From Escherichia coli (GTDB lineage Bacteria; Pseudomonadota; Gammaproteobacteria; Enterobacterales; Enterobacteriaceae), in the NCBI RefSeq assembly GCF_001677475.2, contig NZ_CP015229.1: a stretch of 64,000 nt of DNA; one strand, 5' to 3'. The notes below the pieces were generated by a model. It was not told where the DNA came from, did not search any database, and was given only the letters and a program-made list of their open reading frames with translations. Below are positions 1,323-10,906 of this stretch, piece by piece (position 1 is the stretch's first letter; every line of letters begins with the position of its first letter). Made by a program: the position numbers and the translations under genes.

Positions 1323-3263
1323 TCATGCCGCGGCATCCGCGTTGTTCACTTCCACCGCAATGCTGTCAATCAGCACCGGGTAAGTCGCATTCCTGGTAAT
1401 GTCTGTCACATGCATCTTATCCGCCGCAAAGGCACTGACCGGTGACTGCGTCAGCGTGAACGGTGTACCATCCTGACCATCAATAACCGGCGTTACCTGA
1501 AGGCTGTTATTCCCGGCAAAGCGGAAAGCCAGCGTATGCCATTCATTATCAAATGCGCCAAGGGTTCCCAGTTTCTGGTTATTTGTCGCCACTTTCGCAT
1601 TGTGGTACATCACATTCAGGTCTTTTGCGTCTGTCTGGATGTAAAACGATGCCAGCAGATTATTCCCTGCATCCCCTGTCAGGGTGACACCCTGTGGCAG
1701 AGAGGAAACCGGCCAGTAAAGCGCCATGACATACTGGTTTGCCACCAGTTCACCGGATGCCTTAAAGCGGCAACTGATTAAACCTCCATTTTTCAGCAGT
1801 TCAGCGCCAGTACCGGCATCATGCTCCAGATGCCATGACCCTTTACCTGTCTCCTTGCTCAGCTTCATCGCGGTTCCACCTGTTGCACCCTCATCAGCAA
1901 CAATTTCCGCTTTACCTCCGCCAGCACTCCAGCCCTGTTCGGTCAGCTTCCCTTCAGACTCACTGGCCCGGTAAGACAGCAGTGTTGTGGTGCTTACCGC
2001 TTCACTTTCTGACGGTGACGGCGTCGGTGCGCCAGTTTCAGAAGATGGAACATCGACTTTTACTGTGGTTCTCCCGGCATGAACCAGAATCGCCGTTGCC
2101 AGACGGTCGGAAATAATCCCACGGCGTGCCCAGGAGCTGAAATGGCTCGCCCTGTCCTGTGACGTCCAGGTGGCTGAGCTGTCACGCCATTTCGAACCGT
2201 AATAACCGATACCCGGAATGTCCGGGTCTTCTTCCGGTTTGTTCGTCGGCACATTCACCCCGTTCTCATCGGTCATGAACGGTACGAAATGGATATTCTT
2301 TTCCGTTTTGTTTTTATAGCTGCCGTACACCATCTGGTAGGTGGATTCGTTCTTCTGCTTCCAGAAATACGTCGTGTCCCCACATATCCAGGGAACACCG
2401 CCAGCAGAGCCACCGACGCACTGGCCAGCCATATCCGCCAGGTCTGCACGGAATTTATCAACCAGCGCACCAAACTGTGCTGCGTGATTTGCCGGCGTAC
2501 CGCCAAAATCAAATTCCCCCTGCATCCACACCACGGCAAACAGCACATTTTTCGGGTTCTTCTTCAGTGCTGCTTTTGTTCGACCTATAAGGTCCTTATA
2601 CAGGGGCTTGTCCACCCCCCAGCGCACTGAATTCTCCGAGGCACCGGTCGCGTCACTGTATGTGCCATCAGCTCCGGTGGTGAACGCTGAACCACCACGA
2701 CAGCACGGAACCAGCAGAATACCCGCATTCGCCGGTATAAACGGCAGCAGTTTTTTGGCGATATGCAGCCCCTGCCCCACGGTTCCGTACTGCCCCTTTG
2801 ACAGGTCCGCTTTCGGATGGTTAAGACGGCTCATGTCCTGCACATCATGCAGACAATGGTCCGCCGGAATGATGTCGTTATATTTACAGGCGACACCGCC
2901 CGGTGTCACCGTACTGCGACGCGCCAGCTGCTTAATACGCGGCTCCGGACGGTCATATGTCTCCGGTAGCGGAAGACCTTCACCGTATGACATACCATTG
3001 GACTGACCGGCAAGCGCAATCACATAGTAATATTCTGGCGCAACAGAAGGATTCGTTGAGGTCGTCGGACGGTTGCCTGGCTCCTCAGGTGATGAGATGC
3101 TTCCCTCGCTCACAACTGGCTGGATGAATTCCGCACCATAACCAGCTGTCGAAATCAGCGCACTACCATAAGGCTGCCACCCTTCCTTCAGTTTTTGAGT
3201 TATTCGTTCCGCAAGATCGGACGGCGATACCGCCCTGACCACGTCATAGTGTTTAAATGCCAT
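1323..3263 (-). CDS. nanS-p: Prophage sialate O-acetylesterase-like protein (NanS-p family)
   Basis: 646-aa ORF starting MAFKHYDVVRAVSPSDLAERITQKLKEGWQPYG (DUF1737-like N-terminus) followed by esterase-like core; located between tRNAs and lysis genes as in Stx-type prophages. Confidence 0.7.
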   Translation of the reverse strand: MAFKHYDVVRAVSPSDLAERITQKLKEGWQPYGSALISTAGYGAEFIQPVVSEGSISSPEEPGNRPTTSTNPSVAPEYYYVIALAGQSNGMSYGEGLPLPETYDRPEPRIKQLARRSTVTPGGVACKYNDIIPADHCLHDVQDMSRLNHPKADLSKGQYGTVGQGLHIAKKLLPFIPANAGILLVPCCRGGSAFTTGADGTYSDATGASENSVRWGVDKPLYKDLIGRTKAALKKNPKNVLFAVVWMQGEFDFGGTPANHAAQFGALVDKFRADLADMAGQCVGGSAGGVPWICGDTTYFWKQKNESTYQMVYGSYKNKTEKNIHFVPFMTDENGVNVPTNKPEEDPDIPGIGYYGSKWRDSSATWTSQDRASHFSSWARRGIISDRLATAILVHAGRTTVKVDVPSSETGAPTPSPSESEAVSTTTLLSYRASESEGKLTEQGWSAGGGKAEIVADEGATGGTAMKLSKETGKGSWHLEHDAGTGAELLKNGGLISCRFKASGELVANQYVMALYWPVSSLPQGVTLTGDAGNNLLASFYIQTDAKDLNVMYHNAKVATNNQKLGTLGAFDNEWHTLAFRFAGNNSLQVTPVIDGQDGTPFTLTQSPVSAFAADKMHVTDITRNATYPVLIDSIAVEVNNADAAA

Positions 3264-3480
3264 GAATCCTCCCGGCCGGGATAATGTACTGAATAAGATA
3301 AGGAGTGAGCGGAAGTCCCGAAACACAAGGGAAAAAGACAACCACCCGCAAAAAAGAAATACACTCCTCACAGTTGCGCAGGGTGATTACTGTAAGGTAT
3401 TATTCGCAGCGTTAATTAATTGTTCATATTGCTTTTCTTCTTGCCAACCGCTCTTCCCGGGGGCGGCTTTTTTTGCATGT

Positions 3481-3504
3481 AAAAGGCCCCTGCTATGAGG
3501 GGCC
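3481..3504 (-). terminator. Putative intrinsic terminator upstream of esterase gene
   Basis: Minus-strand hairpin GGCCCCT-catagc-AGGGGCC followed by TTTT. Confidence 0.4.
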
Positions 3505-3752
3505 CTAGTATATGCCTAATCTCTGTATACTGCATGGTGCCGGGTGCCTCCCGGTGAGTTCGGCCTGGTGCCACCAAACCCGCGTATTCTCGCTTACGAT
3601 CATCAAAGAGATCATACCATTCACCAGTCGCCCCTCCGCACAGGGGGATTCACCATGCCAGTTTCTTTTAACAAACTCCCCGCAAATCAGACAACTGTCA
3701 ACTGTCTGAATTGTGAGACATTTAAAATTTTCGGGGCATGACTGATACCCGG

Positions 3753-7416: not shown

Positions 7417-7642
7417 CGTCTTCTTCCTCGTACATTGAGCTATTCGGATCGCTCATCAGTTCTGCGCAGCAATCGGAGCACACGTGAACTTCCAGCACAT
7501 GCAGCTTCTGACCGCAGTTAGCGCACGTTAAAGCTCGCTCGACGCTTTCTTTCTGGTATTGAAGAGATTGGGATGGACTAAGCATGGCTTTCACCATTAA
7601 AAAGTCGCTTGTAAGCATCAATGTCTCGTTTTGCTTCACCAA
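7409..7642 (-). CDS. Hypothetical Cys-rich protein with acidic tail
   Basis: CANCGQ...CSDCC motif, C-terminal EEEDDE; true start probably an internal Met because the 5' end overlaps the upstream gene. Confidence 0.35.
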   Translation of the reverse strand: MVKQNETLMLTSDFLMVKAMLSPSQSLQYQKESVERALTCANCGQKLHVLEVHVCSDCCAELMSDPNSSMYEEEDDE

Positions 7643-8021
7643 GCTTTCGTCTTAATTCCATGTTTTCTGATTCAAGCTTTTCCATGTCTTGCTGGTATCG
7701 ATCGCGGTGTTCTTTCCATGCTTTTCGATACGCCTTCATGTATGTCGTATTGGCCTTTCTCTTTGCCTGACGAACTGCGTGGTGGTTTTTCACAAACCAG
7801 TCAGGGTCGTTAAATGCTGCTCTGGCGCATGTATACCAATAATTTGTTGCCTCCCTGTTTAGCCAATAAATACTGATAAATGGCAACTGGATAGACACCA
7901 TTTTTCGTTGAGACTCTTTCTCGCCAAACATGTGCCCTTTTTTGATGCTAAGGCCAAATCCAGGTTGAATTAAAAGCATTGTCATTTCCTCGCACGATGT
8001 CTTAGCCACCGGATATCCCAC
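7578..8021 (-). CDS. Hypothetical phage protein with C-terminal coiled coil
   Basis: 147-aa ORF; start uncertain. Confidence 0.4.
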
Positions 8022-8154: not shown

Positions 8155-8556
8155 TCATTCATACCTCCTGTCAGTAAATCTGATCCCCTGCTCCACAGCC
8201 CAGGAAGTTGTGTACTCAATCAGGCTTGCCATACGCTTCACGCTCATCTGCGCACTGCTTTCGCGGATATTGACGTATTCACCTTCAAGACCTGGCAAAA
8301 CATCAGCTTCCTGTTTTGTCGCCACGGCATGACCGCTGATTAACAAAACTTTCCACTGTTCTGGTTTTAGCCATCTGCCGCACCACTGAACCTGTCGGGA
8401 GATATCAGCGACCATCGCGTGAAATTTGGCATTTTGAGATAATTTTCTTGTTGGTTTGCGGATGTCTATGATGAATTTATCGGGGGCGGATTTTACTGCG
8501 TTTAATGCGTTAGCTCTGACGGATTCATTAATCAGATGATACCTTTGTCTTTCCAT
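8155..8556 (-). CDS. ninB: NinB recombination protein
   Basis: [30 protein letters not shown] matches recalled lambda NinB core (LDQNRKLWACLGDVSRQVEWHGRWL). Confidence 0.75.
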
Positions 8557-9238
8557 TAGATAGCGCCTCTTCTATGGTTTTTCCTCTCATTAGCCTTACT
8601 GTAATCGTTGAGTAGGGTATGCCTGTTTCTTCACTCCATTCTTTAATGGTCATTGTTTTCCCGTACGCTGTAAGATTTCGCGTTCTTCTGGTGTTGAGCT
8701 TTTGCTCTCGGTCAGTAGCCCATCGGCAATTCTCTTTGCAGTAATCACCATTGACATCAATACGATCAATGCTGCATCCGTCAGGCCTCTCTCCCATGTC
8801 TTCCAGGAAAAGATCAAATGAATTCCACCGTTCACAAACGCGAATCCCCCTCCCTCCATAGTTTTTGTATCCTGGTGTTTCGGGGTTATTGCATCTAGAT
8901 TTCATTTGGGCCCATGAAGAATATGCGCCCTTCCTTTTCCTGGGTTTTCCGTTATTTGCACATCTCAATGCTGCCGATTTCTTTACAAGACATCCGCATG
9001 ATTTAGTTCTACCTGTTGTCAGGGCCGAACGATAAATAAGTTTTTCCTTTCCACAATCACACCGACAAACCCATCGGCTTTCTCCAACTTTACCTCTTGG
9101 GTTTATATATGGATCTCCTTTTCGTAATACCACCAGGAGTCCGTATCTGTTGCCAATTTCAACCATATAGTAATTCCTTGCGCTTGTAGTCAGTAATGCG
9201 GATGGTGACTGGCTTGTCTTTATCGAGAGTTGTTGCAA
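8528..9238 (-). CDS. Cys-rich phage protein, possible HNH-type nuclease/DNA-binding protein
   Basis: CRCDCGK...CGC Zn motif and GYKNYGGRGIRVCERW...CRWAT segment; family assignment is from memory only. Confidence 0.4.
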   Translation of the reverse strand: MQQLSIKTSQSPSALLTTSARNYYMVEIGNRYGLLVVLRKGDPYINPRGKVGESRWVCRCDCGKEKLIYRSALTTGRTKSCGCLVKKSAALRCANNGKPRKRKGAYSSWAQMKSRCNNPETPGYKNYGGRGIRVCERWNSFDLFLEDMGERPDGCSIDRIDVNGDYCKENCRWATDREQKLNTRRTRNLTAYGKTMTIKEWSEETGIPYSTITVRLMRGKTIEEALSNGKTKVSSD

Positions 9239-9323
9239 GGATGGCGTTAATGGCGAATTGTTGCTGCTGCTTACTTCGGAGGAAGATAGTCTGGTTCATT
9301 ATTCCCTCTCATTGGATTTTCCC

Positions 9324-9348
9324 AACAAAAAAGGAGCCGAAGCTCCTT
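9324..9348 (-). terminator. Intrinsic terminator after Bro-N antirepressor gene
   Basis: Minus-strand hairpin AAGGAGC-ttcg-GCTCCTT followed by TTTTTTG. Confidence 0.4.
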
Positions 9349-9353
9349 TAGTT

Positions 9354-9986
9354 TCAGAATTCAAATTGTCTTGCCCGTAGTTGCGCCAGCATGCTTCTGG
9401 CCCTATGCACCATATAGTTGGCGGGATCAAGTTTTGCTGCTTCGCGGAGCAATGTGTCGCGAGTCCGGTTGGTTATATGACGAGTCTCGTAGGCCAGATC
9501 AAACAGTTTCCCGTAGTAATCAGAGTTCAGTTCTCTCATGACGGGGTATAGCTGTTTACTGAGTTGTTGTGCTTTTTCCATCCAGAGTTGAACGTAGCAG
9601 AGCAGGATGATGTCTTCTGCTGTGAATTGCGGCTGAATATGAGGTTGTGGCGGTATAGCGCTTTTTTCAGCTTCACGGTCCAGAATATCCAATACCCAGC
9701 GACGAAACTCTTTTGCTATTGGAGTTCGAGCAAACATCGCTATTAGGTGAGCGCCGCGTAATGAGAAGATGCGAGTCTCTTGCTTGTCCCCTTTAGGATC
9801 GGTCAATTTGACCGAGGCTGTCATACCGTTTGTGAATTCATCTGCGTGACGGGCATAGATGCGTGTTACCGAGCTTTGATCTGCATATTGTAACGCGCTG
9901 GCTATTTGGGGGGCAGACAACCACAGTAGACCATCTCGTTGAACGGTCTGGAATTGAACATTGTGGAATACAAGTTGAGTGCTCAT
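9354..9986 (-). CDS. Antirepressor-like protein, Bro-N-type N-terminal domain
   Basis: 210-aa ORF; C-terminal ~100 aa homologous to the adjacent paralog (QPQFTAEDIILLCYVQLWMEKAQ...LRARQFEF). Confidence 0.55.
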   Translation of the reverse strand: MSTQLVFHNVQFQTVQRDGLLWLSAPQIASALQYADQSSVTRIYARHADEFTNGMTASVKLTDPKGDKQETRIFSLRGAHLIAMFARTPIAKEFRRWVLDILDREAEKSAIPPQPHIQPQFTAEDIILLCYVQLWMEKAQQLSKQLYPVMRELNSDYYGKLFDLAYETRHITNRTRDTLLREAAKLDPANYMVHRARSMLAQLRARQFEF

Positions 9987-10240: not shown

Positions 10241-10906
10241 TTAAAACTCGAATTGTCTTGCCCGCAGGCTTTTCAGCATTGGTCTGGCCCGCTGGATAAC
10301 GAAACTTGACTGGTCAAGCCGTGCCGCCTCCCGCAGTAGCGCGTCTCTGTTCTTCGTCACCATGTAGATGGTTTCAAACGCAATGTCATACAGCTTGTTC
10401 GTGTATGAGGAGTTCAGCTCTTTCATAATGGGATACAGGTGTTTGCTGATGTTCTGGGCTTTTTCCATCCAGAGCTGCATGTAGCAAAGGAGGATGATTT
10501 CCTCGGCTGTGAATTGTGGCTGAATCTGCGACTGCTGTTCGGTTTGTATTGTTTTTCCCAGGCTGAAATAGCAGTCTTCCAGTTTTTCGAATACTTCCCA
10601 CGCTCGATCGGTTTCGAGCATTTTTGCATGACGGGCTGCGCCGCGTTCTGTCCAGAGGATGAGGTGCTTTGTACGCGGTGCAACTAAGTTACTTTGAGTA
10701 ACCTTGTTCTTAAATTCCCGCAATTCAGCCCCTTCCAATTTGAAGTAGTGCTTCCCGCAAACAAAACGCTCGGCATTGCGCGTATAGTTCACTTTGATGT
10801 TATTAGTTTCGGTGCCATAAAGTTGTGCCAAAAGCTCGGTGGTAATAACAAGAATCTGGTTATGGGTAATCGGGGAGATGGTTTCAACAGAGATTTGAGT
10901 TGTCAT
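10241..10906 (-). CDS. Antirepressor-like protein, ORF6N-type N-terminal domain
   Basis: N-terminus LAQLYGTETNNIKVNYTRNAERF...KHLILWTERGAARHAKML resembles ORF6N; C-terminus shared with 9354-9986 gene. Confidence 0.55.
   Translation of the reverse strand: MTTQISVETISPITHNQILVITTELLAQLYGTETNNIKVNYTRNAERFVCGKHYFKLEGAELREFKNKVTQSNLVAPRTKHLILWTERGAARHAKMLETDRAWEVFEKLEDCYFSLGKTIQTEQQSQIQPQFTAEEIILLCYMQLWMEKAQNISKHLYPIMKELNSSYTNKLYDIAFETIYMVTKNRDALLREAARLDQSSFVIQRARPMLKSLRARQFEF

Follow-up and report, generated by a model that had tools for sequence, protein, structure and literature searches.

It has been reported that homing genes lodge in phage coding genes as introns, as inteins, by gene-splitting, as in nrdA of Aeromonas phage Aeh1, and by collaborative homing (PMC10448857). 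In the 64-kb stretch of Escherichia coli DNA analyzed here (contig NZ_CP015229.1), which as a whole is called the window, a nuclease-like gene on the minus strand lies within the lambdoid recombination gene ninB, and the interval 8438–9177 that contains it is probably a free-standing homing endonuclease cassette. Several described systems share part of this arrangement. Like the gene in the window, mobE in nrdA of Aeh1 is an HNH-type gene within a phage coding gene that has no splicing element and leaves the host function intact; as cited in PMC10448857, both halves of the Aeh1 gene are used and their products assemble, whereas in the window the upstream piece is discarded and one full-length protein is encoded. 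The free-standing phage homing endonucleases (T4 Seg/Mob, the I-HmuI-like HNH enzymes and the Skunavirus 'PacI-like HNHE', PMC12724721) also have no intron or intein, show presence/absence polymorphism, combine nuclease and helix-turn-helix (HTH) modules, are tightly packed against their neighbours and leave decayed copies; they normally lie between genes and cut a neighbour, whereas the present gene lies within the host open reading frame (ORF) and carries a replacement 5′ part. Judged by layout, the closest analogue of the cassette design appears to be the partial-duplication endonuclease genes of fungal mitochondria (atp6, cob; PMC6279837), which are free-standing, are inserted at a gene end, take a duplicated terminal segment along with them and leave the displaced segment as a fragment. 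Those genes encode GIY-YIG or LAGLIDADG enzymes, occupy the 3′ (C-terminal) end of the gene and reside in organelles, whereas the window holds a PacI-like His-Me finger gene at a 5′ end in a temperate phage setting. The features of the locus are as follows.

8438–9177, minus strand: inserted cassette of 740 bp, which comprises the nuclease gene, a replacement ninB 5′ segment and a short linker that bears a ribosome-binding site
8528–9166, minus strand: nuclease-like gene, probably 212 amino acids (aa) plus stop codon
8440–8556, minus strand: replacement ninB 5′ segment, codons 1–39, with its own GAGG ribosome-binding site and ATG
8155–8556, minus strand: hybrid ninB restored to full length (133 aa), with its 5′ end from the cassette and its 3′ part from the resident gene
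8528–8556, minus strand: overlap of 29 nt between the nuclease gene 3′ end and the new ninB start, from the ORF coordinates
9159–9299, minus strand: original ninB 5′ remnant, 46 aa, with 41 native codons (MNQTIFLRSK...ITDYKRK) and 5 foreign ones
9178–9220, minus strand: variant tract of 43 bp abutting the insertion upstream, which differs from the empty allele by 9 substitutions, of which 8 are silent

The insertion and its boundaries are defined by comparison with cassette-free phages. In a base-level alignment, window positions 8438–9177 replace 6 bp of ninB in phage phiSTEC1589-Stx1c, and in both this phage and POCJ13 one flank continues directly into the other, giving a single intact ninB (MNQTIFLRSK...). 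The flanks in the window, ~480 bp on the upstream side of the insertion and ~200 bp on the downstream side, are 100% identical to those of the cassette-free phages, and in a megablast search against phages 43 records match the flanks and 0 carry the middle. The cassette truncates the resident ninB after codon 41, yet it supplies a new in-frame 39-codon 5′ end, so that full-length NinB is rebuilt. The replacement segment is joined in frame to the resident gene at ...QNAKFHAM, and the restored protein matches Pfam NinB with an E-value of 1e-47 across profile positions 2–131 of 131, its residues 41–133 being nearly identical to NinB of the empty-site phage. The displaced remnant matches positions 1–41 of the same profile (E 4e-07) and equals codons 1–40 of the intact phiSTEC1589-Stx1c NinB, codon 41 differing (K for N); PGAP labels it as a ninB pseudogene in NZ_CP180600.1, and its stop codon overlaps the region of the nuclease ATG (TATGGTTGA). 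Neither the nuclease gene nor ninB has a second copy elsewhere in the 64-kb window, and the new ninB 5′ segment has no close relative in 50,697 phage records, where the best match reaches 37–40% identity. The G+C content of the cassette is 42.8%, compared with 45–47% in the adjacent nin genes and 49.4% in the whole window, which is consistent with a foreign origin. A terminator-like hairpin at 9330–9349 on the minus strand (AAAGGAGCTTCGGCTCCTTT followed by a T run) and a promoter-like site at 9298–9325 on the same strand, just upstream of the ninB remnant, lie outside the cassette, since this stretch is 100% identical to the empty-site phage.

The first-pass annotation, made from the sequence alone, had described a Cys-rich protein with an HNH-like signature at 8528–9238 that overlaps ninB. 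This minus-strand ORF is present and has 236 aa when counted from the TTG at 9238; its 3′ end holds, but the TTG is almost certainly an over-extended 5′ end. The gene probably runs from the ATG at 9166 and encodes 212 aa, because AAGGAA stands ahead of this ATG at 9179–9174, the PGAP call on identical DNA (E. coli NZ_CP180600.1; a 639-bp gene, WP_001563208.1) has the same start, and the N-termini of the homologues begin at the equivalent Met. The overlap with ninB is real at both ends of the ORF, as its 3′ end shares 29 nt with the full-length ninB and the 72-nt TTG extension, which lies outside the nuclease gene, runs over the ninB remnant. A 46-codon remnant and overlapping genes are easily mis-called, and the over-long ORF is a case in point. 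The same overlap between nuclease gene and ninB is found in four other loci of the comparison (L005, L009, L012 and L013), and the two genes are probably translationally coupled across these 29 nt. Between the window and L013, a viral contig, the nuclease gene has a dN/dS of 0.115 and is therefore under purifying selection.

In a survey of 5,426 complete E. coli genomes, 80 have the empty ninB allele, with an identity of at least 95% over the insertion site, and 1 has the cassette. Such variation, in which a gene is present in some genomes and missing from others at a single fixed site while the surroundings are homologous, is a hallmark of homing genes. The window and L013 are 88–100% identical only across 9180–8440, while the identity falls to ~70% in the flanking ninB and to ~35% further upstream; a cassette common to both despite differing flanks indicates movement between genomic backgrounds. 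In the same comparison, the new ninB 5′ segment has a dS of 0.23 and a dN of 0 and the nuclease gene a dS of 0.27, whereas the rest of ninB is saturated (pS 0.78), so the 5′ segment has been inherited together with the nuclease gene and independently of the host gene. The same three-part layout recurs with diverged nucleases in L013 (93%), L009 (72%), L005 (54%), L010/L011 (54%) and L014 (50%), and in at least six lineages, the window included, the insertion lies within ~2 codons of one ninB position. The upstream remnants in those lineages match the NinB profile with E-values of 2e-7 to 6e-3. For duplicated 5′ remnants (84 loci, shuffle control), this profile search replaced a generic scan of the downstream N-terminus against translated upstream DNA, which was too insensitive, the known positive L012 scoring a z of −0.2. 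A decaying copy is seen in L008 (Logan ERR5014305 contig, 125–772), where the same cassette has a nuclease frameshifted after GGRG, the ninB leader is joined to the sequence ahead of the nuclease start, and an intact ninB adjoins. Purifying selection together with a decayed copy would be expected from the life cycle described for homing endonuclease genes.

The 43-bp variant tract next to the insertion is 80% identical to L001, compared with 100% further upstream, and is found in no empty-site allele among the 5,426 E. coli genomes, the next best match being 90.6%; it looks like a co-conversion tract. No terminal repeats were found at the cassette ends, on which ground a transposon or insertion sequence is rejected; no transposase family was matched in Pfam, PHROGs or NCBIfam either. 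More distant relatives also adjoin ninB-like genes. The nuclease genes of L019/L020 (45%) lie directly upstream of ninB-like genes with no remnant visible, and orf78 of Pseudomonas phage D3/phi_D3 (L003; 2483–3115, 45% identical) precedes and overlaps a NinB/Orf-like gene at 3045–3695 that has the ...RNAKFH... motif too and likewise no visible 5′ remnant. These neighbours suggest that the link of this nuclease lineage to ninB is old, and the D3 layout may be the ancestral between-gene arrangement. Homologues beside MazG in Acinetobacter and beside a gene labelled dUTPase in Streptococcus were considered as further gene-internal insertions and rejected, both being ordinary between-gene placements.

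In itself, the 212-aa protein is an unremarkable representative of a phage family that is very common. It was detected by tblastn in 1,204 deposited phage genomes, often with 2–3 copies each, with hosts that include Staphylococcus, Salmonella, Pseudomonas, Vibrio, Bacillus and Mycobacterium, and a profile search of 1.84 billion cluster representatives gave 205,366 matches at E ≤ 1e-3 and 84,673 at E ≤ 1e-30. The family comprises more than 200,000 clusters at 50% identity, yet its core is covered by no Pfam model. The two motifs quoted in the first-pass annotation, here the CRCDCG...SCGC cluster and the GYKNYGGRGI...NCRWAT segment, are both encoded and conserved across the homologues. The residues invariant in 53 diverse members are C36, C38, G39, C57, G58, C59, W85, R91, G104, G107, I108, W114, F120, R135, Y142, N146, C147, W149, Q155, N158 and R191. 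The AlphaFold model (pLDDT 91) has three parts, which are listed below with the putative active site.

Residues 6–60: Zn-binding beta-barrel module with the CxCxC...CGC cluster, from the AlphaFold model and the motif
Residues 78–160: PacI-like beta-beta-alpha core (D134, R135, Y142, N146, Q155, N158)
Residues 164–201: C-terminal HTH, which a hairpin accompanies in the AlphaFold model
8693–8767, minus strand: codons of the putative active-site motif D134-R135-I-D-x4-Y142-x3-N146-C-R-W-x5-Q155-x2-N158, from PacI spacing, conservation and hhalign

The N-terminal module (profile positions 4–63) is present in 2–11 tandem copies in many relatives, which reach ~900 aa, and this suggests that the Zn-barrel is a DNA-binding unit that can be repeated. 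Two Cys sets are peculiar to this family and conserved within it, C34/C36/C38/C57/C59 and C92/C111/C147. In the column of residue 72, at least 90% of the family have His, while the enteric subclade has Asn there and a Cys three residues upstream, which may be a swapped zinc ligand. At the C-terminus, the window protein has only a weak Pfam match to Sigma70_r4, and HTH models of Pfam match the C-terminus of several relatives. The core in the AlphaFold model is helical and contains a beta-beta-alpha unit at 131–156, with strands at 131–135 and 147–151 and a helix at 152–156; a beta-hairpin followed by a helix that carries the putative metal residues is the arrangement that defines the His-Me finger superfamily.

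The family name given by the first-pass annotation, HNH-type endonuclease, is right at the level of superfamily and database annotation and wrong at the level of the motif. In its favour, the protein matches PHROG 374 'HNH endonuclease' (E 1.2e-65, phrog_374 being the best), PHROG 3377 (E 1.4e-53) and several further PHROGs families with the same label, although this label is an annotation, and it has the beta-beta-alpha unit and PacI as the best structural match to the predicted core. Against it, Pfam gives no nuclease match, the Pfam models HNH (PF01844) and HNH_3 (PF13392) do not match this protein at E ≤ 1, HNH_3 is matched by just 2 of the 53 relatives with a best E-value of 0.055, and NCBIfam gives zero matches. 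The position of the canonical catalytic His, preceded by Asp (D-H), holds Arg135 instead (D-R), with Arg in 53/53 relatives. The position of the canonical metal-binding Asn (N113 of PacI) holds the invariant Gln155, with the invariant Asn158 one turn on. R.KpnI uses Gln at the metal-ligand position. A canonical HNH endonuclease is therefore ruled out by the missing catalytic His and the failed Pfam HNH and HNH_3 models, and the protein is probably PacI-like, with a putative catalytic Tyr in place of His.

PacI (PDB 3LDY/3M7K; His-Me finger group 20, Jablonska et al. 2017) is a His-Me finger without the His; it relies instead on a tyrosine of the inter-strand loop, placed so as to start cleavage, and binds the metal through Asp and Asn (PMC5714182; PMC4081073). 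Its motif, verified in the sequence, is D92-R93-S-D-S-F-E-G-Y100-S-P-Q-N104-A-R...N113, and that of the window protein is D134-R135-I-D-V-N-G-D-Y142-C-K-E-N146-C-R...Q155, so that both follow D-R-x-D-x4-Y-x3-N-x-R...(N/Q) with the same spacing (+1, +8, +12, +21). The invariant Y142 stands 8 residues after D134 as Y100 does after D92, and is by position a PacI-like tyrosine. The motif positions are invariant or near-invariant within both this family and the PacI family, D134 being nearly invariant, and hhalign of the two families aligns exactly the motif segments. The proteins also share the loss of the catalytic His and a small zinc-stabilised fold. In sequence the two are only marginally similar, hhalign aligning 91 columns of the families with an E-value of 0.007. 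PacI, a homodimeric restriction enzyme of 142 aa that stands alone, has an Asn metal ligand and two Cys4 zinc sites placed elsewhere; its C63/C66/C109/C112 have no Cys counterparts here, which tempers the link. The window protein differs further in its added N-terminal Zn-barrel and C-terminal HTH, its Gln at the ligand position and its mobile-cassette setting. Sequence searches of the PDB with the protein (phmmer) and the family profile (hmmsearch) found nothing relevant, PacI included, and Foldseek against the PDB gave no match below E 0.8; the evidence for the PacI link is thus consistent but statistically modest, the PDB sequence searches and Foldseek being blind to PacI. 'PacI-like HNH endonucleases' have been spotted by HHpred in lactococcal phages, without demonstrated activity (PMC12724721).

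If the cassette is a homing element, its 212-aa product would be a site-specific DNA endonuclease whose Zn-barrel and C-terminal helix-turn-helix recognise DNA and in whose PacI-like core the loop tyrosine Y142 would stand in for the missing histidine, while D134 and Q155 would hold the metal. When a carrier and a cassette-free lambdoid phage or prophage meet in one cell, the enzyme would bind and cut the intact ninB, presumably near codons 40–44, which encode the conserved R-N-L-D-Q-N. The break would then be repaired off the carrier, the homology arms being the ninB remnant on the upstream side and the 3′ part of ninB on the downstream side, so that the cassette and short flanking tracts would be copied in. 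Judging from the sequence layout, NinB should still be made, because the cassette brings its own ninB 5′ end with a start site, and the displaced original 5′ end would stay behind as a short leader ORF. From this arrangement, the old ninB leader would be the first of three cistrons linked by translational coupling, followed by the nuclease gene and then by the rebuilt ninB; as the nuclease starts at the leader stop and ninB starts in the last 29 nt of the nuclease gene, both could use the native expression signals of ninB by coupling.

Other explanations of the same locus have to be weighed against homing. It is rather unlikely that the gene encodes a regulator or other DNA-binding protein that derives from HNH enzymes and has lost catalysis, and that it is carried on a passive mosaic segment that arose by one illegitimate recombination and spread by homologous recombination through the ninB flanks. 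The invariant Arg at the catalytic His position, the unmatched Pfam HNH models, the two DNA-binding-type modules and the rarity of the cassette speak for this explanation, and there is precedent among His-Me fingers for the loss of catalysis with DNA binding retained, as in SMAD MH1 (PMC5714182). However, the equivalents of the PacI active site are all invariant across a very large family, which is hard to explain for a pure binder, recombination joints lie within ~40 bp of both cassette ends even between ~70% identical backgrounds, and the family behaves as selfish nuclease genes do, with multiple copies in a genome, insertion in diverse contexts and decayed members.

Of the three roles put forward in the first-pass annotation, packaging, homing or exclusion, homing fits best, given a presence/absence cassette at a fixed ninB site. 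As an exclusion or competition weapon of the resident prophage, the enzyme would act by marker exclusion, cutting ninB in related phages that enter the cell, and the spread of its gene would be a side effect, an explanation that rests on the same molecular evidence as homing and that we consider improbable. ninB is non-essential for lambdoid growth, so cutting ninB alone would exclude poorly unless the break were lethal; moreover, no PADLOC defence model was matched by the protein at E ≤ 0.01, and a design that rebuilds ninB suggests selection for residing without harm, not for defence. These points stand against the precedent of marker exclusion, which is established for T4 Seg/Mob and has been seen for some lactococcal HNH endonucleases (PMC12724721; PMC10448857). 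Packaging, in which an HNH endonuclease would aid terminase at cos sites, is known for some phage HNH proteins (PMC3592412; PMC12724721) but has next to no probability here. It is unsupported because the gene is placed in the nin region, with antirepressor-like genes on one side and ninB on the other and not beside terminase, and because closely related, viable phages do without it; the canonical HNH models that are typical of packaging HNH proteins are unmatched as well.

The homing cassette might, as a tentative proposal on which we would place slightly less than even weight, represent a fourth way to live within a phage coding gene, beside introns, inteins and gene-splitting, by means of a spare 5′ segment, a discarded leader ORF, a coupled three-cistron unit and an enzyme of a huge Pfam-less family of Tyr-type (PacI-like) His-Me finger homing nucleases. 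No prior description of ninB with homing or HNH insertions, of phage endonuclease cassettes with duplicated segments, or of a 5′-replacement design in phages, was found in the literature, of which the coverage was incomplete, so that absence is unproven. If the homing explanation holds, a selfish nuclease gene occupies a coding gene without splicing machinery by bringing a replacement part, and this would account for some of the hybrid alleles of the mosaic lambdoid phages and some of their short fragments that are labelled "pseudogene". ninB codons 40–44 would then be a precise target site for a very large HNH-labelled family that has no defining histidine, and the family could yield new sequence-specific nucleases built on repeatable Zn-barrel DNA-binding modules.

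In the neighbourhood of the cassette, an ORF of 133–147 aa lies between ninE and ninF at 7578–8021 on the minus strand, and has no Pfam annotation in the matching contigs L006 and L007. On the other side, two tandem antirepressor-like genes are found at 9354–9986 and 10241–10906, both on the minus strand, that differ in the N-terminal domain, which is Bro-N in one and ORF6N in the other. In the C-terminal half, the two closely resemble each other (P22_AR_C; ...QPQFTAE[DE]IILLCY[VM]QLWMEKAQ...LRARQFEF), and the pair looks like a case of domain shuffling between paralogues.
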